A stretch of 64,000 bases of DNA from the NCBI GenBank assembly GCA_963751455.1, contig CAVVUN010000001.1, positions 352,001-416,000 of the forward strand, in the 5' to 3' direction. The position numbers and the translations under genes were made by a program. Below the pieces are notes generated by a model that saw only the letters and a program-made list of their open reading frames with translations, was not told the DNA's origin and did no database searches. Below are positions 20,629 to 48,500 of the stretch, piece after piece. Positions within the stretch are counted from its first letter, which is position 1. Each line of letters begins with the position of its first letter. Source of the stretch: Nitrospirota bacterium (GTDB taxonomy: Bacteria > Nitrospirota > UBA9217).

Positions 20629-20672
20629 CCTGCACCCAGCGACTACGAGTGCGTCAGCGCAAGTGCAGGGTG
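20629..20672 (+). mobile_element. 44-bp mini-element A inserted in a 7-mer repeat tract
   Basis: CCTGCACCCAGCGACTACGAGTGCGTCAGCGCAAGTGCAGGGTG sits between the units TCTCCTG and TCTCCTC; homologous copies occur elsewhere in the window. Confidence 0.75.
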
Positions 20673-21898: not shown

Positions 21899-22088
21899 CC
21901 TGCACCCAGCCTGCACCCAGTGTTTACGAGTGCATATTGCGCGAGTACAGGGTGCGCTTATGAGGTCCTTGATTCCCGTCTCGCGGTACTCAGCGAGATG
22001 GTACGACAATGAGTCTAATTATTAGCAGCACGAGCCTGCGCCCAACGAATTCGAGTGCGTCAGCGCGAGAGTAGGGTGTGCAGTGGCG
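21899..22088 (+). mobile_element. Nested composite of mini-elements: outer A containing A, B and A
   Basis: Outer A starts at 21899, inner A 21910-21954, B about 21965-22018, A 22035-22078. The whole unit interrupts the 7-mer tract AAATCCGAAATCCG|CAATCCGCAATT. Confidence 0.72.
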
Positions 22089-22101
22089 CAATCCGCAATT
22101 T

Positions 22102-28580: not shown

Positions 28581-28655
28581 AAAAAACCCTCACGCCTTCG
28601 CTTGCACCCGGCGTTTACGAAAGCTCAGCGCGAGTGCAGGGTGTGAGGGTTTTTT
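28581..28655. terminator. Intrinsic terminator of the c7 gene, interrupted by mini-element A (28601-28643)
   Basis: Removing 28601-28643 gives AAAAAACCCTCACG-CCTT-CGTGAGGGTTTTTT, a perfect hairpin. Confidence 0.8.
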
Positions 28656-31332: not shown

Positions 31333-31442
31333 ACACCTCCCGTATGGGACCGGAAGAGTACGACAATGAGTCTGAGGGTTCTCGCTTGCTAGCGAGATGG
31401 TACGACAATGTGTTTAGTTAGTAGTAACACGTATCCAGGGTG
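31333..31442 (+). repeat. Degenerate copies of mini-element B
   Basis: GTACGACAATGAGTCTGA and CTCGCTTGCTAGCGAGATGGTACGACAATG, ending in an A-like CAGGGTG. Confidence 0.6.
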
Positions 31443-35876: not shown

Positions 35877-37163
35877 ATGGGCAGCGTGATCAAAAACTTT
35901 TTCATTGCCTTGCGCCAGGTCTTTATAGGGAGCCGGGCTTATTATCTCTGGATTGCGTTCCTGTCCCTCTTCATTCTGCTCGGGTTCAGCGCATACGCCG
36001 ATCAGCTCCAGCAAGGACTCATCACGACCGCAATGCGGGACCAGGTCTCCTGGGGCCTGTACATCTCGAACTTCACCTTCCTTGTCGGCGTGGCCGCGGC
36101 GGCGGTGCTCCTTGTCGTTCCGGCGTACCTCTACAACTTCAAACCGATCAAAGAGATCGTGCTGTTCGGCGAGCTGCTCGCCGTGACCGCGATCACGATG
36201 TGCATCCTGTTCATCCTGGTCGACATGGGACAGCCGATGCGCGTATGGCATATCCTGCCGCTCCTCGGGGCCATGCACTTCCCCGCATCGCTGCTTGCAT
36301 GGGACGTGGTCGTATTGAACGGGTATCTCGCCATAAACGGCATCATTGCCTTCTACGTCCTGTACCGGCTGTCGATCGGCAAGGAATACAGCATGTCCGT
36401 GATCGGTCCCCTGATCATTCTCTCGATCCCCTGGGCCGTGAGCATCCATACCGTGACCGCGTTCCTCTACAACGGCTTATCCGCACGGCCGTTCTGGAAT
36501 GCCTCGATCCTGGCCCCCAGATTTCTTGCTTCGGCATTCTGTTCCGGGCCTGCGATCATGCTGGTCCTGTTCCAGATCATCAGGAAACGCTCCGAGGTGG
36601 AGATCGACAACCGGGCCATTTTTAAAATAGCTGAATTGATCGCCTACGCAATGGCTATCAACCTGTTCCTTCTGGGCGCAGAGGTGTTCAAGGAATTTTA
36701 TTCAGGCGCGGTCGACAGTTATTCTATCCGGTATCTCTACCTGGGTCTTCACGGGAAGACCAGCCTGGTGCCCTGGATGTGGGCCGCAACCTTCATGAAC
36801 ATTACGGCGTTCTTCCTGTTCCTCTTCCCGAAGACCCGGGAGAATTTCACGACCCTCAATATCGGATGCATCCTGATCATCATGGGCGTGTATATTGAAA
36901 AGGGCATGGGCCTGATAGTCCCCGGCTTTGTTCCGGACAGCCTCGGGGAAATTTATGAGTACTCTCCTACCACGTCGGAGATTCTGGTAACGATGGGGAT
37001 CTGGGCCTGCGGCGCGCTTCTGTACACGGTGCTCCTCAAATTTGCCGTACCGATTTATACCGGGAAGCTCAGGTTCGAAACGAAGGAGAGGACAGGTTAC
37101 AACAACCCCATAGCAGGACACACAACAGCAGAACACACAGCAGGATCGCACGGTAGGAACTGA
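35877..37163 (+). CDS. NrfD/PsrC-family quinone-interacting membrane subunit (CbcU-like)
   Basis: WGLYISNFTFLVGVAAAAV, VDMGQP, SLLAWD, SIHTVTAF and RFLASAF. Confidence 0.93.
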   Translation: MGSVIKNFFIALRQVFIGSRAYYLWIAFLSLFILLGFSAYADQLQQGLITTAMRDQVSWGLYISNFTFLVGVAAAAVLLVVPAYLYNFKPIKEIVLFGELLAVTAITMCILFILVDMGQPMRVWHILPLLGAMHFPASLLAWDVVVLNGYLAINGIIAFYVLYRLSIGKEYSMSVIGPLIILSIPWAVSIHTVTAFLYNGLSARPFWNASILAPRFLASAFCSGPAIMLVLFQIIRKRSEVEIDNRAIFKIAELIAYAMAINLFLLGAEVFKEFYSGAVDSYSIRYLYLGLHGKTSLVPWMWAATFMNITAFFLFLFPKTRENFTTLNIGCILIIMGVYIEKGMGLIVPGFVPDSLGEIYEYSPTTSEILVTMGIWACGALLYTVLLKFAVPIYTGKLRFETKERTGYNNPIAGHTTAEHTAGSHGRN

Positions 37164-37245: not shown

Positions 37246-37466
37246 GCGGAAATCCTTTACGGCATGCTTGGTCGTCCTCAGTACGATAGAAATCTCAAAC
37301 AGTCCGAAATGCTTAACCCTCGGATAGCCTGTATTCGCGCATGTGCACTCATAATCACCGGCCACGAGTTCGGTCACATGCCTAGATTTTCGCATGGGAA
37401 AGAACAACAAGCTACCACACAAAACCCGGAAGATCCAGATGTTCTACTTACTCCAGAATTGACTCA

Positions 37467-38247: not shown

Positions 38248-38366
38248 GACTCCTCCGCGTCTTTTATGAGTTATCAACAAATCAAGAAATAAGGTTTGAT
38301 CCTGATCCATCAATTACTGGTTAGAATTTTAGCATAGTTTGAAATGAAATACGATGATTTTGAGCA

Positions 38367-38964
38367 AAAGGAATGGGGCTGATCGTCCCCGGCTTTGTTC
38401 CGGACAGCCTCGGGGAAATTTATGAGGCCCCTGATTCCCGCCTGCACCCAGTCGGTTACGAGTGCACTGCGCGAGTGCAGGGTGTCTCGCGATCCATAGC
38501 GAGATGGTACTACAACGAGTCTAAGAATTTCCCCTGATTCCCGTCTGCACCCAGCGTTTATGAGGTCCTTGATTCCCGTCTCGCGCTTCTCAGCGAGATG
38601 GTACTACAATGAGTCTAAGCAGTCGGCACTGCGCGAGTGCAGGGTGTCTCGCGATTCATAGCGAGATGGTACGACAACGAGTCTAAGTATTATGCGACAG
38701 CGGGAATTCAGGGCGGAACTGCGAACTCGCGACAGCGAGGCTCAACCGAGCCACGCGCGAGTGAGCGGATAGATTTTTCATTGTCCACTACTCCTTCTCG
38801 ATAGATTTATCTTTGTCCATCTGCCCCTCGCCCTCCAGGGAGAGGCTGGGGTGAGGGTGGGTCTTCTGAGAAGGATGGGATGAGGATGGGTTCCACCCCG
38901 GCGGAGCCGGGGGAAGCCAAGGCGCGGGATAACGATGGGAATCTGGGCCTGCGGCGCGCTTCTG
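38367..38964 (+). pseudogene. Displaced 3' fragments of the nrfD-like gene, split by repeat elements
   Basis: 38367-38426 matches about 36900-36959 (KGMGLIVPGFVPDSLGEIYE) and 38930-38964 matches 36988-37022 (TMGIWACGALL); the differences I aligned are synonymous. Confidence 0.8.
38427..38713 (+). mobile_element. Nested cluster of mini-elements A and B
   Basis: B contains A (38441-38484). A second B contains A (38544-38646), which itself contains B (about 38565-38618). Confidence 0.78.
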
Positions 38965-40450: not shown

Positions 40451-41374
40451 TCAAGACAATAAAGGGGTGAGATTAAGATGGTAACCGACCAAGCCGCAGC
40501 TGCATGGCGCTGCCCCGGTTTCTACCTCTCCCTGAGGTTCTTTTCGCTCTTTGAATTTATCCACAATCCTTGCTCCACCGCCGTTCGCTGTTCGATAGAT
40601 CACATCCGGTGTGCTGTAGTCCAATGATTGATGTGTTCTTTCCGTGTTGTAGAACATAAAGTATTTCGTCAGCCCCAGTTGCGCTTCAGGTACTGTGGCG
40701 TACCCTTTTAAATATACGTCTTCGTGCTTTACGCTCCGCCATAGCCGTTCCACGAAGATATTGTCCAATGCACGGCCGCGGCCGTCCATGCTGATGTTAA
40801 TGCAGTGCGCCTTGAGCACGCCGGTGAAGGCCTCAGAGGTGAACTGGCAGCCCTGATCGGTGTTGAAGATCTCGGGGATGCCGTATGTCTGTAATGCCTG
40901 TTCTAGGCAGTCCACGCAGAAGCTGCTATCGAGCGTGTTTGATAATCGCCATGCCAGCACTTTGCGTGAGTACCAGTCGATCACGGCCACCAGGTACACA
41001 AATCCCCGCGCCAGGCGGATGTAGGTGATGTCAGTGCTCCATACCTGATTGGGTCGTGTCACCGATACGCCTCTGAGCAGATATGGATAAACCATGTGCT
41101 GCGGGCTGGGGCGGCTGGTGTTCGGTCCCGGTGCCATGCCTGCAAGCCCCAGAATGCCCATTAGCCGCTGTATCCGTTTTCGGTTGACCTGATGCCCTAT
41201 GCCGCACAAGTACACGGTTATTTTGCGGCTGCCGTAGAACGGATGCCGGGTGTATTCGGCGTCGATCTCACTCAGCAGGGTCAATTCCAGCTCGTCCGGG
41301 TCGGTAGTCAGATGCGGCGCATAGAAAGTGGACCGGTTGACACCTGCCAGTTCGCATTGTTTGGTCAGCGCCAA
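40451..41374 (-). CDS. IS3 transposase OrfB (rve integrase core)
   Basis: YGSRKI, NQVWSTDITYI, FNTDQGCQF and DNIFVERLWRSVK. Confidence 0.95.
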   Translation of the reverse strand: MALTKQCELAGVNRSTFYAPHLTTDPDELELTLLSEIDAEYTRHPFYGSRKITVYLCGIGHQVNRKRIQRLMGILGLAGMAPGPNTSRPSPQHMVYPYLLRGVSVTRPNQVWSTDITYIRLARGFVYLVAVIDWYSRKVLAWRLSNTLDSSFCVDCLEQALQTYGIPEIFNTDQGCQFTSEAFTGVLKAHCINISMDGRGRALDNIFVERLWRSVKHEDVYLKGYATVPEAQLGLTKYFMFYNTERTHQSLDYSTPDVIYRTANGGGARIVDKFKERKEPQGEVETGAAPCSCGLVGYHLNLTPLLS

Positions 41375-41409
41375 GGGGTTTTTGGTATCTACCCAGTGCC
41401 GCCGGTCCG

Positions 41410-41703
41410 CTATAGGCTGATCCCGGACTTTTTTTTAAGCCAGTCCAGTTCCATCTTCAGCCGTCCGATCTCGGAGTAGAGCCGCTCCGAACTGGCAGCA
41501 GGATCTACCGGCGCGGGACCGCGCGTAGTGTCAAATATGCCCGCAGCCTGATCTTGCAAAACCTTTTTCCACTGCCCCACTTGCGTTGGATGTACGCCGA
41601 ACGCCTGGGCAATTTCGGTTACTGTCTTGACACCTCGGATCGCCTCAAGCGCGACCTTGGCTTTGAACTGACTGCTGAAATTTTTGCGCTTTTTTTCGCT
41701 CAA
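41410..41703 (-). CDS. IS3 transposase OrfA (HTH)
   Basis: FKAKVALEA...IAQAFGVHPTQVGQWK...LDWLKKKS. Confidence 0.93.
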   Translation of the reverse strand: MSEKKRKNFSSQFKAKVALEAIRGVKTVTEIAQAFGVHPTQVGQWKKVLQDQAAGIFDTTRGPAPVDPAASSERLYSEIGRLKMELDWLKKKSGISL

Positions 41704-41769
41704 AACCTGCTCCTTTTTAACGGCAGGTTACCATCTTAAACTATTGTCCGAAAATTGGGGTCCACTATA

Positions 41770-42042
41770 GTGGCGACGATTGTAATATTGAGCATACCAG
41801 GTTAATTGCTTTCTCATTACATCGGATATTCCCTGCTTTCCACTTTTAAACAGAAGGTGGACATGATTCGTCATGAGCACCCAAGCGTATATCTTCGCAT
41901 TTGCCGCTGTAATGTTCTTTTCTAGTCGGCTCAGAAACAGGGCGCGGTCCTGGTCGTCATCAAATATTGTTGCTTTATTTATCCCACGCAACATGAGGTG
42001 ATGAAGCGCTCCAGGTGCATCAAGTCTCGCTTGCCTTGGCAT
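41770..42042 (-). pseudogene. Y1 HUH tyrosine transposase (IS200-like/RAYT group) truncated by IS3
   Basis: MPRQAR...HHLMLRG...IF...YAWVLMTNHVHLL...YAQYYNRRH; interrupted by the IS3 end before the catalytic Tyr region. Confidence 0.88.
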
Positions 42043-42266
42043 GGTGCGAGTCTATATTATTCATATAATACTTGTCAACACCATTTGTCCATTTCGGTCA
42101 CTACGTCCCCTAAGTTATCTTTGACCGGAACTTTCGCCACGAGTGCTGGATAGGCGTGAAAGGTTTCGTGTGTGAAAGCTTTGTCAACGATGTCCGCGAA
42201 CCTTGAACAGTTGTATTCGCTACTTCGATTTATTGTTGGGTCGCCTGATCTCATATTGTTTTGAAG

Positions 42267-42325
42267 GTATAACCAGCGCCTGACGCGCCGTCTTTGGCGC
42301 GTCGCTGTCCAGGCGCTTGTTGGAA
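42267..42325 (-). other. Integron attC site
   Basis: Minus strand TTCCAAC-AAGCGCCTGGAC...GTCAGGCGCTG-GTTATAC: R'' and R' boxes, L boxes with an extrahelical base, central hairpin. Confidence 0.8.
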
Positions 42326-42398
42326 TTTTCATCTGATCGTCATCTTGAGAATCTATTGTCAACACCAAAGATTCGACCCCCAATACGTTCCCAAAAAG

Positions 42399-42529
42399 AT
42401 AATCCCGGGGCTGAGCCATGACCCGTAGGGTCATTGGTCTCGTGCCCGTTGTTCTCCCGGCGGTTCGTGCCGGGAGATGGGCACATGGCTCAGCCCCGGG
42501 ATTCTCGCGGCGCGAAGCGCCGGGAGAAC
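42399..42529. repeat. Structured non-coding repeat, copy 1
   Basis: Long stem CCCGGGGCTGAGCCAT/ATGGCTCAGCCCCGGG with internal hairpins; second copy at 43002-43141. Confidence 0.85.
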
Positions 42530-42584
42530 GCGAAGATGAGCCCTGTTTCGTGGGGGTCGATCTTTTGGTTGGATCATTTCTGTT

Positions 42585-42929
42585 TTATTGAGGTGGAGCT
42601 ATGCGTGATTTTTTTCGTATATCATTCTTGGACTGTGGTGTCTCTTTCTTTTCTATTGGATTCAATTGGTGAGATTGCACCTTATCAGGAGGTACGGCCA
42701 TTGGAGTAGATGGTGTTTTATGAAAAAACTCAGAATACACAAGGGCGAGAGTTAAAATGAGAATGATAGCGGTCATGTATAGCATAAGCTTATCGTTTCT
42801 AATTTGCCTTCTATTAAATTCTGATCGAGCAGCAGTCCTTACATCATTGGGGTATTTGTTAAAATCTGTTGAATTTATGATTTCAATTAACTGATGATCA
42901 TGTTTTTTCGTCCAATTATGATCAGTCAT
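42585..42929 (-). CDS. Hypothetical single-TM protein, cassette-like
   Basis: SD AGGAG before ATG 42929; AT-rich; TM LMLYMTAIILILTLALVY. Confidence 0.65.
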   Translation of the reverse strand: MTDHNWTKKHDHQLIEIINSTDFNKYPNDVRTAARSEFNRRQIRNDKLMLYMTAIILILTLALVYSEFFHKTPSTPMAVPPDKVQSHQLNPIEKKETPQSKNDIRKKSRIAPPQ

Positions 42930-43001
42930 GATGCTGTCTCCTGTGTTTTTTGATGTTGTGGCCAGCTCAGCGGCGAAGACCGACTGGAGCCCGTGGTTGG
43001 A

Positions 43002-43141
43002 ATAATCCCGGGGCTGAGCCATGAATCCGAAGGATCATTGGTCTCGTGCCCCTGGTTTCCCGGCGCGCCTTTAGCTTGCGCCGGGTTAGGGGCACATGGC
43101 TCAGCCCCGGGGATTCTCGCGGCGCGTAGCGCCGGGAGAAC
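43002..43141. repeat. Structured non-coding repeat, copy 2
   Basis: Same architecture as 42399-42529 with compensatory stem changes. Confidence 0.85.
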
Positions 43142-43191
43142 ACGCGGGTAACTCGCCGCAAGGCGAGTCGATGTTGACGCGCTAGTTATGC
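43135..43191 (-). other. Integron attC site downstream of the HNH gene
   Basis: Minus strand GCATAAC-TAGCGCGTCAAC...ACTCGCC-TTGC-GGCGAGT-TACCCGCGT-GTT. Confidence 0.7.
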
Positions 43192-43210
43192 ACTCGGCAA
43201 CCGTAGCCAA

Positions 43211-44209
43211 TTAGATAATAATTCTCTTGCTTACTGACATGAGCTTACTAACTTGTTTTGTTTCAATATCAAAATGATGGCCTGATTTGAGAGGTATCCA
43301 AATGCCGCTAAAATTATCGCAAAGAGTCACGCCATAAGTATAAGTGTTAAATAAACTAACTTTACTAAAAAGTTTGCTGTGATTCCATTCGACGGTGATC
43401 AGATGTCCGTTAGTTGTTTTAATTTTCATCGTTTGGTCATAATAGAGTATGGGAGACTGGTTCACATTTAAATATCGGCGGCAATCACCTTGGTCATATC
43501 TAATAAATCGTCGTATTTCGTGGAAGTTTTCAGAGAACATGAAATGTTTTCCAGCAACATAGGCGAGATAATTGAAGGCGATTTTGCAGAAGCCTCTCAT
43601 TATCACGCGATCAATCGTTACTTCCATTTCTATAGGTATTCTCCCGTCTGGTAGTTGCTTCTTTTCTAAGTAATCCTTGTCAGCGATTTCGATGCCTTTT
43701 CCTCGAAGCAATGATATTAATTCATCTATTTCTCGACCTTCTTCCGCGACAAGCCAAATCGTGGTTCCTTTCTTTAGATAGCCCCGTTCGATAAGCTCTT
43801 CCTTTGAGGGAATATTATCAGGAGTAAAATAATGATACTCGTCTTCATTGGCATTATAGAATCCCACTTGAACGGATTTCTCTACCCCTAACTCATTAAC
43901 TCCACAAGGTCGTTCTTCTACAACGAGCCCCTTCCAGTCACCCTCTTTTATTTTACTTTTTACTCTTCTTCGCCTAGCAAGCGGAGCTTTGGGCTTTAAA
44001 CCGTGTCTTAATCGTTCGACACCCTCAAATGAATCTCGTCCCAAAAACAACTCTATTTTGTCACCGAAATATTGATTGCAATCATCACAAATGGTCTCAT
44101 ATAGGAGAAGATTATCTGGGGAGAACAGTCCGAAAGACTGCGGAATCACATGTTCTCTTTTTTGAAAATCAGATTTCTTCTTGTCCTCTAAACAATATAT
44201 GCATCGCAT
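43211..44209 (-). CDS. HNH endonuclease (HNH_5-like N-terminus), gene cassette
   Basis: CIYC...REHVIPQSFG...ICDDCNQYFG and KIAFNYL; AT-rich; bounded by attC sites. Confidence 0.88.
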   Translation of the reverse strand: MRCIYCLEDKKKSDFQKREHVIPQSFGLFSPDNLLLYETICDDCNQYFGDKIELFLGRDSFEGVERLRHGLKPKAPLARRRRVKSKIKEGDWKGLVVEERPCGVNELGVEKSVQVGFYNANEDEYHYFTPDNIPSKEELIERGYLKKGTTIWLVAEEGREIDELISLLRGKGIEIADKDYLEKKQLPDGRIPIEMEVTIDRVIMRGFCKIAFNYLAYVAGKHFMFSENFHEIRRFIRYDQGDCRRYLNVNQSPILYYDQTMKIKTTNGHLITVEWNHSKLFSKVSLFNTYTYGVTLCDNFSGIWIPLKSGHHFDIETKQVSKLMSVSKRIII

Positions 44210-44222
44210 AAGCGATATCTCA

Positions 44223-44281
44223 GTACAACAATGAGTTGAGCCCCGCGCTTTAAAGCGCGGGACTCGAACGAGTCGTTAACA
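44223..44281 (-). other. Integron attC site
   Basis: Minus strand TGTTAAC-GACTC-GTTCGAG-T-CCCGCGC-TTTAAA-GCGCGGG-G-CTCAAC-TCATT-GTTGTAC; lies 10 nt after the stop of the 44292-45362 gene. Confidence 0.85.
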
Positions 44282-44291
44282 CTTTCTCTTC

Positions 44292-45362
44292 TTAATCCGC
44301 CGTTCGAACGCTCGCCACGATGGAACGCAATAAACCTTCGTCTATTTTTCCCATTTCCCCTGGTTGACTGATGAAGAATTGCATTCCACGCTTTTTATAG
44401 GCAATTATGATTTCCGCGACTGATTTATTTCCTCTGATACCCTGTAATACAATCCCTCTCAAATTAACGCTGTAAATCTCGTACACTTTAGCGTCCAACA
44501 GATTTTTAAAAAAGGTAGAATTATTAAGTCTCGGAATGAGGCCATACCTTGCGTTGTATCCCAAGCGAAAAAAATCAAAATCATCCCGAATTCCTACTAC
44601 ATAGGCAAGAAATGTTCTCCATTTGATATCCGAATCTTCTAGCAAACCGGGGCCGACCTTGATCCTCATTTTATTTCGACTATCTTCAAAAGAATGCCAC
44701 GATTTTTCTTCTTTCGTTTCCACTAAACTGACAGGCAAAGTGAAATAGAAACCGTTAACTTGATAGCGATTGCCAACAATAGGTTTTACTTCGGTCAACC
44801 AATCTTTTTTCTCAACAGTAACATCCTCAGAAGGGCCAACTTGGTTCATGGTGTAAAAATAATTTCCCAAGGCGATAACGATTAACAGTAAACAAATGGA
44901 GGTAACAATTACGAGCCGTTTTCGATATGATTCTTTATGGATAATGACGGATGGAAGACGGTTTTGAAATTCATTTTCTGCATGTACAGCTTGTTCTGGG
45001 CTTAACCCCATCGCCAATGAATAAATCTGGAGCTTGCCTGTCTTTACATTTACATTAAACCCTCTCAAAACATGATTTATAGAAATCGATTGTATTTTGT
45101 CGTACGGAATCCGTACCCGAAAAGATTTTAAGATCAGCTTTTTATCATCGTCAAATTCAAAATAGTTGGTTAAGCGGGTTAGTGCTAAAGCGATAAGATT
45201 CACAGCGGTCAATACTATAAATATCATTGCAAATAAATGAACAAAGGCTGTTCCCATAATCGGGAACGAAAATAAGAACGCGAAGATAGCAACGAATACA
45301 ATACTTTCTTTGATTGAATAAGCATTACCAAGTATTTTTTCGCGATTTGTCTGATTTGACAT
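44292..45362 (-). CDS. Hypothetical membrane protein (3 TM), gene cassette
   Basis: 356 aa, AT-rich; preceded by GTTAAC at 45382-45387, complementary to the R'' of its own attC. Confidence 0.8.
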   Translation of the reverse strand: MSNQTNREKILGNAYSIKESIVFVAIFAFLFSFPIMGTAFVHLFAMIFIVLTAVNLIALALTRLTNYFEFDDDKKLILKSFRVRIPYDKIQSISINHVLRGFNVNVKTGKLQIYSLAMGLSPEQAVHAENEFQNRLPSVIIHKESYRKRLVIVTSICLLLIVIALGNYFYTMNQVGPSEDVTVEKKDWLTEVKPIVGNRYQVNGFYFTLPVSLVETKEEKSWHSFEDSRNKMRIKVGPGLLEDSDIKWRTFLAYVVGIRDDFDFFRLGYNARYGLIPRLNNSTFFKNLLDAKVYEIYSVNLRGIVLQGIRGNKSVAEIIIAYKKRGMQFFISQPGEMGKIDEGLLRSIVASVRTAD

Positions 45363-46038
45363 TTAGACCTTTCAGAAAGGAGTTAACAAGTATTTGAAGG
45401 GACGGAAACCGTCCCGGCATTTCCGAAAATCCTGTAATACTGGGGTGAAAAGTTATATCATGACGCACTATATTGCAGAAGCCGGCAGGTAATAATCGAT
45501 CGTAAAAAGTACGGAAATTCGGATTTACTGGGATGAACATTATTCAACTTTATCTTCGGGAAGTATATTTTATGCGAGTCTGAGTGTCAAGGTGAAGTTT
45601 GAAAGTTCCATTCAATAGGGAATGTTCGATATAAATTTTTGAATGAAACCTTCATGGTTGCGAGGTCTTGAAACACCAAAATTTCAGGAAGAAATCTATA
45701 TTTATCCGAAATAACGGTCAACAGGATGAAGTGTGAAGAGAGGCGCCTGAAGGCGGATGATCGAATGTCTGGATTGTGGCGAACAGCATTCGCTCAACGG
45801 GGCTTCTTTTTCTTTATCTCTGCAAGCACGCCTGCAGGGATGGGCCGTCATCCGCATTTTTTGGCGTGTGCCGCATGCCAGCGTATTCTTTCTTCAAGTG
45901 AAGCCTTCTGAGGCATCTTATTCGCCGTATGCCATTCTTTATTCATCACCGACTCTCCTGCATTCGCTGCGAATTGAAACACTTAACGAGGCAAAGTCTC
46001 AGACCCGCTGAAGTATGAATTCAAGATCAAAAGCGGTC

Positions 46039-46128
46039 TCTCGCAAAGCCGCAAAGGTCACAAAGAAACCCTTTTTTGGTCTGGATTTTAAAATCAAATG
46101 ATTGGGCCTTTCTTTGCGGCTTTGCGCC
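46039..46128. repeat. Palindromic element of 9-mer repeats, right arm truncated
   Basis: TCTCGCAAAGCCGCAAAGGTCACAAAG ... CTTTGCGGCTTTGCGCC. Confidence 0.65.
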
Positions 46129-46245
46129 TGGTTTTATGATTGATTCAAAAACTTGACTTAAAATTAAAGATCTTGGTTTTTAAAATACTTTAACACTCAA
46201 TCAGTGGACATCATTTATGTATGAACAGGGAAAAATAATTGACGG

Positions 46246-46665
46246 CTACGGAGAACCGGACCACGGATTAATGACCTCAAGACCAGGGTAATCGAAATCC
46301 TTGACGTTATGCGTCACGAGCCGCAAGTCGTGATGCAGCGCGGTAGCCGCAAGAAGGCTGTCTATTGTGGGAACCGATCTTCGAACTTCCGCCAGCAGAC
46401 GCCCCCAACGGTCGGCGACCGCAAGGTCGACCGGGAGGACCCGTTCCTCAAACCATCCCGGAAGTTCGTGATCAAACCAGATTCGCAGCTTTTCACGACG
46501 TTTCTTGTCCGTCAACGCCTCGATGCCTTTGCTTATCTCTCCCAGCGTGAGCACGCTGATAAAGAGCGCTTCACCCGGGACCTGGTCGAGCCATGCTATC
46601 ACCGCCTTGTCCGGGTTGCGCCTGACAGCCTCCGACACAACGTTCGTATCCAGCAGAAAGCTCAT
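46246..46665 (-). CDS. vapC: VapC (PIN-domain) toxin
   Basis: FLLDTNVVSE, SVLTLGEI, DSLLAATA and LVTHNVKDF. Confidence 0.95.
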   Translation of the reverse strand: MSFLLDTNVVSEAVRRNPDKAVIAWLDQVPGEALFISVLTLGEISKGIEALTDKKRREKLRIWFDHELPGWFEERVLPVDLAVADRWGRLLAEVRRSVPTIDSLLAATALHHDLRLVTHNVKDFDYPGLEVINPWSGSP

Positions 46666-46913
46666 GCGACATCCGCCTCCCGCGTGAGCGTTTGTTGACG
46701 TTCGATATCAAGCTCCACACCGTAAAGCGGCGAGCGTCGCATGAATTTCAGAAAGCTCTCCGGCGGATGCTTGAGACGTTCATACTCCTTGCTCGAAATG
46801 ACAACGGCACTCGGTTCCCCGTGAACAGTGATCATCTGCGGACCGTCCTTCACGGCCTTCTTGATAACCTCGCTCAGGCGGGCCTTTGCTTCCTGCAGCT
46901 GCCAACTGGTCAT
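46662..46913 (-). CDS. Phd/YefM-family antitoxin
   Basis: WQLQEAKARLSEVI...GPQMITVHG..AVV; ATGA overlap with vapC; upstream TTGACA-17-TATTAT and SD AGGAGG. Confidence 0.94.
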   Translation of the reverse strand: MTSWQLQEAKARLSEVIKKAVKDGPQMITVHGEPSAVVISSKEYERLKHPPESFLKFMRRSPLYGVELDIERQQTLTREADVA

Positions 46914-47110
46914 ATACGCCTCCTATTTTGGTCAGTCTAGTCAGACTCAATAATAGCACCGGGATTGAGAATTGTCAAGACCGCGGATGCCGGGTATGGA
47001 GAACGGAATTACAAGAGATAGGGTCAAGGGTCAAGCAGGCAATCAGCAGGAACCGGTTTGTATCGCGAACATGAAATAGTAAGATCAACCACGGATTGAT
47101 AATGTCAAAA

Positions 47111-47447
47111 TCATAGTCCGTTCAGAAATTGCGTCACAACCAGCAGGACGGTGAGCGCGATGAGAATGTAGACCGTGGTCCAGGTGATGATGTTCATCCG
47201 TCTGGAGTTGACGTTCTCTCCCATGATCGATTTGTCGTTCACAAGCTTGAGCATGATGATCAGCACGACCGGCAGGAGTATCCCGTTAATGGTCTGGGAC
47301 ACGAACATGATCTTGATGAGCGGCGCTCCGGGCAGAAGGATCGCTCCGGCGCCGATCACGATAAATGCCGTATAAAAAACCGAGAAACTGGGGCGCTTCC
47401 TTGAAACTCTTGCTGACCCCGGATTCCCAGCCGAAGGCCTCTGACAG
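47111..47447 (-). pseudogene. Displaced 3' fragment of the Nramp gene
   Basis: Near-identical to 48589-48924, with mostly third-position differences and one extra A at about 47374-47379. Confidence 0.9.
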
Positions 47448-47688
47448 TAATATCGTACTGATCTGGCTTGATCTGAAAAACAACAGCAAATGGGAATGTC
47501 ATCGTAAGACAGCGGCGAACGCCATCTTCGATTTCAGGGTATAGGAGAGGATTGATTTGGATTCTGTTGAGGGCGTCTTGAACTAACGTAAGAAAGCGCT
47601 TCCCGAGGTCCTTCTGCTGGCTCTCGTAAAACTTGGCCGCAGAAATCATCTCGGCCTCGGCTTCAGGATGGAAGCGAACGGGTTTCAT
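47448..47688 (-). CDS. RelE/ParE-family toxin, C-terminus fused to or truncated by the Nramp fragment
   Basis: MKPVRFHPEAEAEMISAAKFYE...LGKRF...NP..YP...RRC...FPFAVVF; the usual C-terminal A..H..R.P motif is absent. Confidence 0.8.
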
Positions 47689-47915
47689 CCGAGGGCTGCA
47701 AAGCCTCTGGCAAATACATCCGCGGCCTCACGCAACTCTACTGATCCTTCATCTATCTCGCGACAGCGCTTGCGTATTTCGTCTCGCCATGCAGACGACA
47801 AAGTAAATTCATGTTCGGAATCGAGGCTTTCGATAAGTTTTTCCGCTACGAAAGCACGCGCTTGCGGGGAAAGAGAAAGAACTTCCGCTATGATTTCATC
47901 AATCGTTGTTTTCAT
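47685..47915 (-). CDS. Addiction-module antitoxin component
   Basis: LSLSPQARAFVAEKLIESLD...AWRDEIRKR; overlaps the toxin start; leaderless promoter TTGACC-17-TATAAT (47950-47922). Confidence 0.88.
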   Translation of the reverse strand: MKTTIDEIIAEVLSLSPQARAFVAEKLIESLDSEHEFTLSSAWRDEIRKRCREIDEGSVELREAADVFARGFAALG

Positions 47916-48098
47916 AGGAATATTATATACCGGTACTCCGCGTAGGTCAAACGTTTTAAGTGGAGAGTGTTTTCAAGGATACTGCTCCTTGTATCGCGCC
48001 ATTTCGCCTCCGTTACATGGGGTATTGATGATTCCTTACAGCGTACGGAATTACAGATCGCTACCCTTGGAACGGCCATCGGAGACATGAACAACGGA

Positions 48099-48500
48099 CT
48101 ACTTCTGTTTCAGCACATCCCTGATCTCGGCAAGAAGCACTTCTTCCCTGGACGGAGCATGAGGCTGTGAGGGCGCCTCTTTTTCCTGCCTCTTGAGTGA
48201 GTTCATGCCTTTGACGACCATGAAGATCGCAAAGGCAATGATGACGAAGTCTACGAGTGACTGAATGAACTTGCCGTAGTTCAGCGTAACAGCCGCGGCG
48301 TCTCCGGTCGCCTCCTTCAGGGTGATTGCAAGGTCTGCGAAATTTATCTTGCCGAGCAGCATGCCGATAGGCGGCATGATGACATCGGCGACGAGCGACG
48401 ATACGATCTTTCCGAACGCTGCACCGATAACGATACCTACTGCCATATCGGCTACGTTGCCTCGCATGGCAAATGCCCTGAACTCTTTTATCATTCCCAT
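48099..48500 (-). CDS. mscL: Large-conductance mechanosensitive channel
   Basis: [46 protein letters not shown] and LLAEIRDVL. Confidence 0.97.

Follow-up and report, generated by a model that had tools for sequence, protein, structure and literature searches.

Two short intergenic repeats of a Nitrospirota genome, A (44 bp) and B (about 60 bp), each forming a single hairpin, are very probably mobile elements that nest within each other (probability of about 0.9). Reciprocal nesting was originally predicted from the window, i.e., the whole 64,000-nucleotide stretch analyzed here (positions 352001 to 416000 of contig C1 of the source genome, labeled G000), and it proved to be genome-wide. G000 contained 140 intact copies of A (≤3 mismatches) and 73 matches to the left end of B, one of which was a chance match inside a gene; a shuffled genome yielded none of either, which excludes chance. 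Further analyses of A used the 127 copies with ≤2 mismatches, and uninterrupted B copies numbered 69. Mechanically called open reading frames of ≥200 residues, which make up 72% of the genome, contained 36 of 218 A/B loci, many of them loose half-motif matches. Adjacent left ends of A and B lay on a common strand in 64 of 64 cases.

The nest in the window and its alleles

The nest at positions 38427 to 38930 is real and, on a base-by-base parse, has five levels, deeper than first described. A MITE-like host repeat, C, contains an outer A, which held two B units; each B is split by an A, and the second of these As contains a third B. The first unit, B1 (38427 to 38530), is split by A1 (38441 to 38484), an intact 44-bp hairpin element inserted between TTCCCG and TCTC. 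The second, B2 (38531 to 38692), is split by A2 (38544 to 38646), which is itself split by B3 (38565 to 38622), an intact B inserted after TTATGAG of A2. There follow two parts that had been overlooked, namely, the right half of the outer A (A0; 38693 to 38715) and the right half of host C (38716 to 38930), which is interrupted at 38768 to 38890 by other DNA that contains one more hairpin repeat. All of these features lie on the forward strand. Other copies of host C, empty or A filled, were found at G000:C3:344557, C3:324779, and C6:203476 and on C15 and C9; the family is MITE-like, about 150 bp long, with hairpins at both ends and a further internal hairpin module.

Host C and the outer A have both lost their left halves, and a duplicated nrfD coding fragment (38366 to 38426, forward strand) is fused to the nest; this fragment ends in TTTATGAG and is identical at 57 of 61 positions to 36899 to 36959. 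A second nrfD fragment (38930 to 38964, forward strand) matches 36988 to 37022 at 34 of 35 positions. We infer that a deletion through the 8 shared bases made the joint between nrfD and the nest. The predicted left ends of B at 21965, 38427, 38531, and 38565 were confirmed, as was TTATGAG in front of three of them (21958 to 21964, 38420 to 38426, and 38558 to 38564); the copy at 38420 is a rearrangement junction. Because the two A-in-B cases of the window share derived bases, they look like one tandem duplication of a B[A] unit (a B holding an A), of which B1 is the first. The proposal that A enters B at one fixed position thus did not hold, and four other copies lie in the apical loop of B. 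The left half of A2 is unlike that of its sister A1, as if it had been patched from a donor A[B].

Elsewhere in the window, a second nest occupies an AATCCGC heptamer array (21899 to 22090), where an outer A holds an A (21910 to 21954), a B (21965 to 22024), and another A (22035 to 22078). Solo copies of A lie in a TGACTCC/TGTCTCC heptamer array (20629 to 20672) and in a short inverted repeat (28601 to 28643), and the degenerate B copies noted near 31358 to 31410 turned out to be two degenerate right halves of B (31357 to 31420), all on the forward strand. A solo variant with a T:A closing pair is on the reverse strand in another intergenic repeat (37325 to 37369). The window also carries a cluster of mobile- or defense-type genes at 40451 to 48500 (IS3-type integrase core, truncated Y1, HNH, PIN, and ParE) and a 268-bp duplication at 47110 and 48588.

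Contigs from public runs X1, X2, and X3 carried pieces of the locus at 94 to 99% identity with differing nest contents; these contigs have low depth, come from related strains in three or four runs, and include some joints with short sides. The X3 allele reads nrfD fragment, empty B (the B of B1 without its A), and then B[A]. The X2 contig bridges the junction between nrfD and B and has a shorter nest, the X1 allele includes a further B unit, attached at the ACGAG of B itself, and continues into the unique downstream sequence, and an X5 allele is devoid of the hairpin repeat at 38800 to 38867. None of the public-run matches was a single read or contig across the whole nest. Composites of both kinds, A[B] and B[B], were also present in another genome, and A[B] was present in metagenome contigs. 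We therefore rejected an assembly artifact as the origin of the nests, and misassembly of the window nest is unlikely.

Structure, hosts, and insertion sites of A and B

A consists of a leader of 4 or 5 bases and an imperfect hairpin, with its last base closing the basal stem. Among 248 pooled copies, the leaders were CCTG (198 copies), CTTG (19), ACTTG (12), and TCTTG (7), so that C[C/T]TG accounted for 217. In 23 aligned copies, 93.9% of the hairpin cells were paired, a value reached in 0 of 500 shuffles, and both sides had changed in 8 of 13 pairs. Base 6 covaries with the last base (C:G in 220 and T:A in 22 of the 248 copies) and base 19 covaries with its partner (C:G in 197 and T:A in 42), counts that are inflated by related copies. 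The consensus hairpin of B comprises 14 pairs and a 9-base bulge, with compensatory change in 3 of the pairs (22 copies); B also has a variable tail of 5 to 7 bases. The one Rfam match for A/B was due to chance (E value of 4.2), and a K-turn in the inner loop of A was dropped because, by covariation, two pairs separate the bulge from the GA pair. No description of either family was found in literature searches run without Nitrospirota as a term and with subscription papers mostly outside their reach.

The hosts of A include heptamer arrays, RAYT-flanking REPs, the MITE-like C, A itself, and B. Repeated DNA flanked A in 78 of 127 cases, compared with 693 of 3,000 random noncoding motif sites. 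The idea that each element supplies the target of the other was correct for B, with about 33 of the 69 copies in A (27 by script and 6 on inspection), about 13 in tandem after another B, 8 inside B, and the rest elsewhere. It was incorrect for A, with 105 of the 127 intact copies in other hosts, 17 in A (three sites), and 5 in B (two sites). Identical A copies in unrelated flanks were rare in G000 (5 of 83 sequences were shared, mostly between sister hosts).

Several side observations concern these families. A GTAG-led REP-like element lies inside A at G000:C15:229906, C15:249233, and loci L169 and L222; together with A in RAYT-flanking REPs, this suggests that reciprocal nesting may reach a third family. 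A shortened form of A, which differs in its apical stem, is frequent in genome G018 (loci L061 to L063). Head-to-tail arrays of B with units of 58 to 59 bp were found at G000:C15:1354196-1354539, C14:28105-28288, and C15:1002594-1002721, the units being near-identical within an array and without unique spacers. Two paralogous loci with the same two flanking genes carry different B arrays, i.e., six tandem units at C15:1572031-1572329 versus a short nest at C10:5039-5158; this difference may reflect a mixture of strains in the assembly, for which contamination is 5.4%.

In silico removal of A left a site that was present elsewhere for 56 of 127 copies, compared with 2 of 2,000 random intergenic deletions. 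Most of these empty-site twins restored a single G, and a minority restored another base or two; therefore, A stands 3' of a G without target duplication. The consensus target, TYYG/TG (the slash marks the insertion point), was the same in G000, in 110 copies from metagenome and viral contigs, and in the pooled set, where position -1 was G in 241 of 248 copies, -4 was Y in 197, -3 was Y in 199, +1 was Y in 221, and +2 was R in 198. These twins and this consensus bear out the predicted insertion 3' of a short motif without duplication. Guide-like covariation between A and its target was absent (nothing above 0.13 bits), and the left target base was mostly G even when base 6 of A was T, which argues against base 6 as a guide. 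Host hairpin stability was similar at empty A sites and random motif sites (-7.4 versus -6.9 kcal/mol). Of 111 scorable copies of A, 69 had the better-folding strand on the C-rich strand and 42 on the other, a weak bias (p = 0.013; background of about 50:50; 16 copies in flat regions left out). By inference, this strand is the leading-strand template, opposite to the preference of IS608.

Among relatives, A is patchy. Pattern searches detected A in 10 of 24 genomes of the family and in none of 16 others, and a covariance model detected it in 15 of 27 and 0 of 123; in the model, the three apical pairs were shifted by one column and no more than 39 candidates per genome were scored, so its counts give presence and not copy number. 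Presence varied within genera (e.g., G018 and G122 were positive, versus G104 and G111). B was detected in 1 of 40 relatives (G011), and one exact B pattern matched 9 loci in one Nitrospirota metagenome-assembled genome plus one unrelated locus in a genome collection. A was also seen in three viral-collection contigs (loci L280 to L283), within host-type repeats.

Proposed modes of mobilization

We tentatively favor, at somewhat less than even odds, a reading in which A and B are nonautonomous elements moved as folded single strands by a trans-acting HUH-type enzyme, with conversion adding to the B-in-A cases. Such a single-strand cut-and-join enzyme would excise and insert the folded A or B strand, presumably cutting after the last base of the element and after the target G before joining the strands. 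A filled A would keep its ends and then could travel or be duplicated as a composite. Nests would thus grow because A has three usable sites, retains its ends when filled, and moves or duplicates as a composite. HUH transposition fits best with the folded strand, the 5' leader, the paired terminal base, the lack of duplication, and tandem amplification. The accessible parts of PMC3333891 and PMC8266576 describe IS200/IS605 TnpA and TnpA-REP proteins as strand specific, as recognizing a hairpin that carries a 5' tetranucleotide, and as associated with tandem amplification. The empty-site twins, the target consensus, the covarying structure, the single strand, the alleles, and the patchy presence of A all argue for this reading. 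Against it stand the absence of an enzyme from our searches, the distribution of Y1 genes, the Y1-free genome G086, a leader that is not GTAG, junctions that are not at CT/CA, the few identical copies, the junctions of B, which are ragged by 2 to 6 bases, the weak C-rich strand bias, and the failure of base 6 to guide target choice.

The search for an enzyme covered neighborhoods and genomes. No gene was enclosed by unmatched A/B ends within 6 kb in G000 (one pair was spurious) or in 10 stretches between close A copies in four other genomes. A recurrent neighbor gene was considered and rejected, the neighbors being large common families (response regulators and ABC ATPases). No intact A or B lay within 700 bp of the 33 Y1 or 4 IS110 matches in G000, and no intact A was found in 16 Y1, 32 IS110 (4 own and 28 listed), or 30 GIY-YIG loci. 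A search for IS91 Y2 transposases in G000 gave no match, and its controls likewise gave none. Across 36 relatives, TnpA/RAYT, IS110, reverse transcriptase (RT), and integron integrase (IntI) do not track A: the counts in A-positive versus A-negative genomes, which come from nonindependent kin and many fragmented assemblies, were 16/20 versus 15/16 for Y1, 8/20 versus 9/16 for IS110, 9/20 versus 11/16 for RT, and 13/20 versus 5/16 for IntI (p = 0.09). Parentage by an IS200/IS605 or IS110 element, as first suggested, was therefore not borne out, with no gene-bearing element that has A or B ends and neither enzyme tracking A. The single-contig genome G086 has 7 A matches and is without Y1, IS110, RT, and IntI; its inspected copies are in one host family and so may be old passengers.

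Two further observations were made in these searches. Among 6 RT loci, one had an A upstream of the RT gene: this copy (L016:1107-1150; G000:C2:443058-443099) is about 350 bases upstream of the RT match, which is probably inside a group II intron, and near an integron integrase gene. A family of Y1 proteins of about 300 residues in G000 (C1:184811, C1:546104, C15:1291667, and about 10 more) is bounded by short terminal inverted repeats (GGGTCA...TGACCC), carries small tandem repeats on one side, and includes one direct tandem at C1:184811-186036.

How B reaches A bears on the strongest alternative, in which no dedicated transposase exists: after a nick or stall, a host repeat would be repaired by annealing or template switching to a short single-stranded donor, and microhomology would paste in the hairpin. 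Tabulation of the bases upstream of B, as originally proposed, placed TTATGAG in register before 27 of 69 copies. A T was present in 25 of 26 B-filled A copies compared with 16 of 75 solo copies. The motif is not a sufficient target, contrary to the original prediction, since 96 noncoding TATGAG/YR sites outside A (versus 9 inside) are unused. As predicted, B's own 3' AYGAG can precede another B, a B left end following 2 of 63 B right ends. In solo A, the T of TTATGAG pairs with an A on the other arm in 39 of 42 copies. This base pair is broken by the T in 11 of the 19 filled copies whose right half could be called, the 11 retaining the G of the C-type on the other arm, compared with 3 of the 42 solo copies (pooled p = 4e-5; in another 12 filled copies from G000, the right half was not callable). 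The T thus often arrives with B, as in co-conversion. A preference of B for T-G-M-G is real as well, against a pure passenger reading of the T: in one host, B stands after a TGCG that is present even in the empty copies of this host.

Insertion of B into A is far commoner than the motif explains and often comes with the flanking base, so that short-homology conversion from an A[B] donor is likely part of the spread of B; tandem B arrays are likely due to local amplification. As the whole explanation, repair without a transposase is nonetheless unlikely. It gains from the imposed T, from YGAG microhomology junctions at 38426 and in run X1, from G086, and from one B[B] insert of a tandem array that replaces 6 host bases; homology cannot account for the one-base precision of A in unrelated hosts with one consensus.

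We judge it quite unlikely that small single-strand nucleases linked to the host repeats, of the Ssn GIY-YIG, DUF559, and GxxExxY types, open the sites and that A and B are captured during repair. The hosts are nuclease- or RAYT-flanking repeat types, G000 holds 6 GIY-YIG and 10 PF13366 matches, and SsnA cuts single strands beside its hairpin in the part of PMC11893778 available. One consensus over many host families, however, points to one enzyme, the 30 GIY-YIG loci contained no intact A, and GIY-YIG occurs in 35 of 36 relatives, UvrC included, and so does not discriminate.

The conserved crossover G, the one folded strand, and the lack of duplication would also suit an integron integrase or related tyrosine recombinase that puts a folded hairpin into degenerate G/TN sites, and the right flank (YR) can lengthen the basal stem by two pairs. 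We consider this distinctly unlikely, even with the IntI counts leaning its way: 7 A-positive genomes show no IntI, the last base is A in 25 of 248 copies, and attC-like hairpins near G000 integrases are unlike A or B. The RYYYAAC and GTTRRRY boxes given for attC sites in the accessible part of PMC12901181 are absent from both elements.

RNA-mediated spread, in which the hairpin would be transcribed, enter RNA or DNA, and become fixed through reverse transcription, is improbable; the G:T pairs and tandem G:A-like loops are RNA-like and G000 has 6 RT matches, but RT is no commoner in A-positive relatives, the elements show no sense bias (21 sense and 31 antisense), and Rfam gave no match of note. 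Derivation of A and B by deletion from an IS110-family element recombining at a core of 1 or 2 bases is very improbable, given that the ambiguity of junctions by 1 or 2 bases is offset by the absence of A/B ends from all 32 IS110 loci, the relatives' IS110 counts, and targets of A that are too degenerate for one IS110 guide. REPs are known targets of IS elements (PMC3333891, in its accessible part), a point on the side of that derivation.

Beyond the HUH-type reading that we favor, a bolder and doubtful proposal is that A and B are the first well-delimited hyperparasites of 40 to 60 bases, a 4-base leader plus a hairpin, that parasitize all other repeat families of the genome and each other. 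Their mover would be an undescribed or housekeeping enzyme, as the lack of Y1, IS110, RT, and IntI in single-contig, A-positive G086 suggests.

Comparison with known small repeats

A and B work like REP- and IS200-type elements yet fail on tag, doublet, partner gene, and ends. Like REPs, REPINs, and BIMEs with their RAYTs, they are intergenic and multicopy, with a 5' tetranucleotide, an imperfect hairpin, and one active strand; A itself combines a tetranucleotide with a palindrome of 20 to 50 bases in many intergenic copies. REPs also form tandem arrays conserved within a locus, and some REP families lie within other palindromes, according to the accessible parts of PMC3116915, PMC3333891, PMC8266576, and PMC3733652. 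Unlike REPs, A has a C[C/T]TG leader and not GTAG or CGTC, inverted doublets are absent (all 64 adjacent pairs being on the same strand), no RAYT is flanked by A/B, and A inserts into RAYT-flanking REPs. Like IS200/IS605 elements and their MITEs, A and B insert strand specifically on the 3' side of a short motif, no duplication results, and a terminal base pairs with an internal one. In contrast to these, A and B are one hairpin and not two ends with guides, the target is a degenerate TYYG and not a fixed tetranucleotide, no tnpA/tnpB partner shares their ends, and no lagging-template bias is apparent.

Other systems share fewer features. The NTS repeats (NTS-SRM) of Ssn nucleases are oriented hairpins handled as single-stranded DNA, whereas no ssn gene lies beside A, and the accessible part of PMC11893778 describes no precise insertion of NTS into repeats. 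Integron attC sites share the folded strand, the crossover after G, and the lack of duplication (PMC12901181, in the part available), whereas A and B have no R boxes, genes, or arrays at an integrase. With IS110/IS1111, A and B share no ends of a DEDD recombinase element.

A and B most resemble the small dispersed repeats (SDRs) of Nostoc, tiny structured repeats inserted precisely into other repeats. Elhai et al. in 2008 (Genome Res 18:1484) reportedly described SDR1 to SDR8 as 21 to 27 bp long, self-nesting, and hosted by heptamers. A and B are likewise short, keep their structure by compensatory change, insert precisely, and nest (SDR nesting being as reported). They differ in being longer (44 and about 60 bp), in belonging to a Nitrospirota-like family, in nesting reciprocally, and, for A, in occupying many host families. 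The TGACTCC heptamer that hosts A is also present in a Nostoc plasmid. A search of one Nostoc plasmid gave no match to an A-core motif. SDR5 is precisely inserted at a fixed point of HIP1 (cited in the accessible parts of PMC5861425, PMC4390886, and PMC3116915), and the part of PMC3116915 available names the spread of the SDRs as unexplained.

How repeats of fewer than 60 bases, such as these SDRs, spread has been open since 2008. For this question, A offers ends defined to the base, a consensus target drawn from 248 copies, a structure supported by covariation, alleles with and without an insert, and genomes of one genus that differ in the presence of A (e.g., G018 and G122 versus G104 and G111). 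Should a single enzyme place this 44-base hairpin, whose apical loop is tolerant, precisely behind a G, the insertion system would be very compact. A and B look like neutral passengers of intergenic DNA, with no host function implied.
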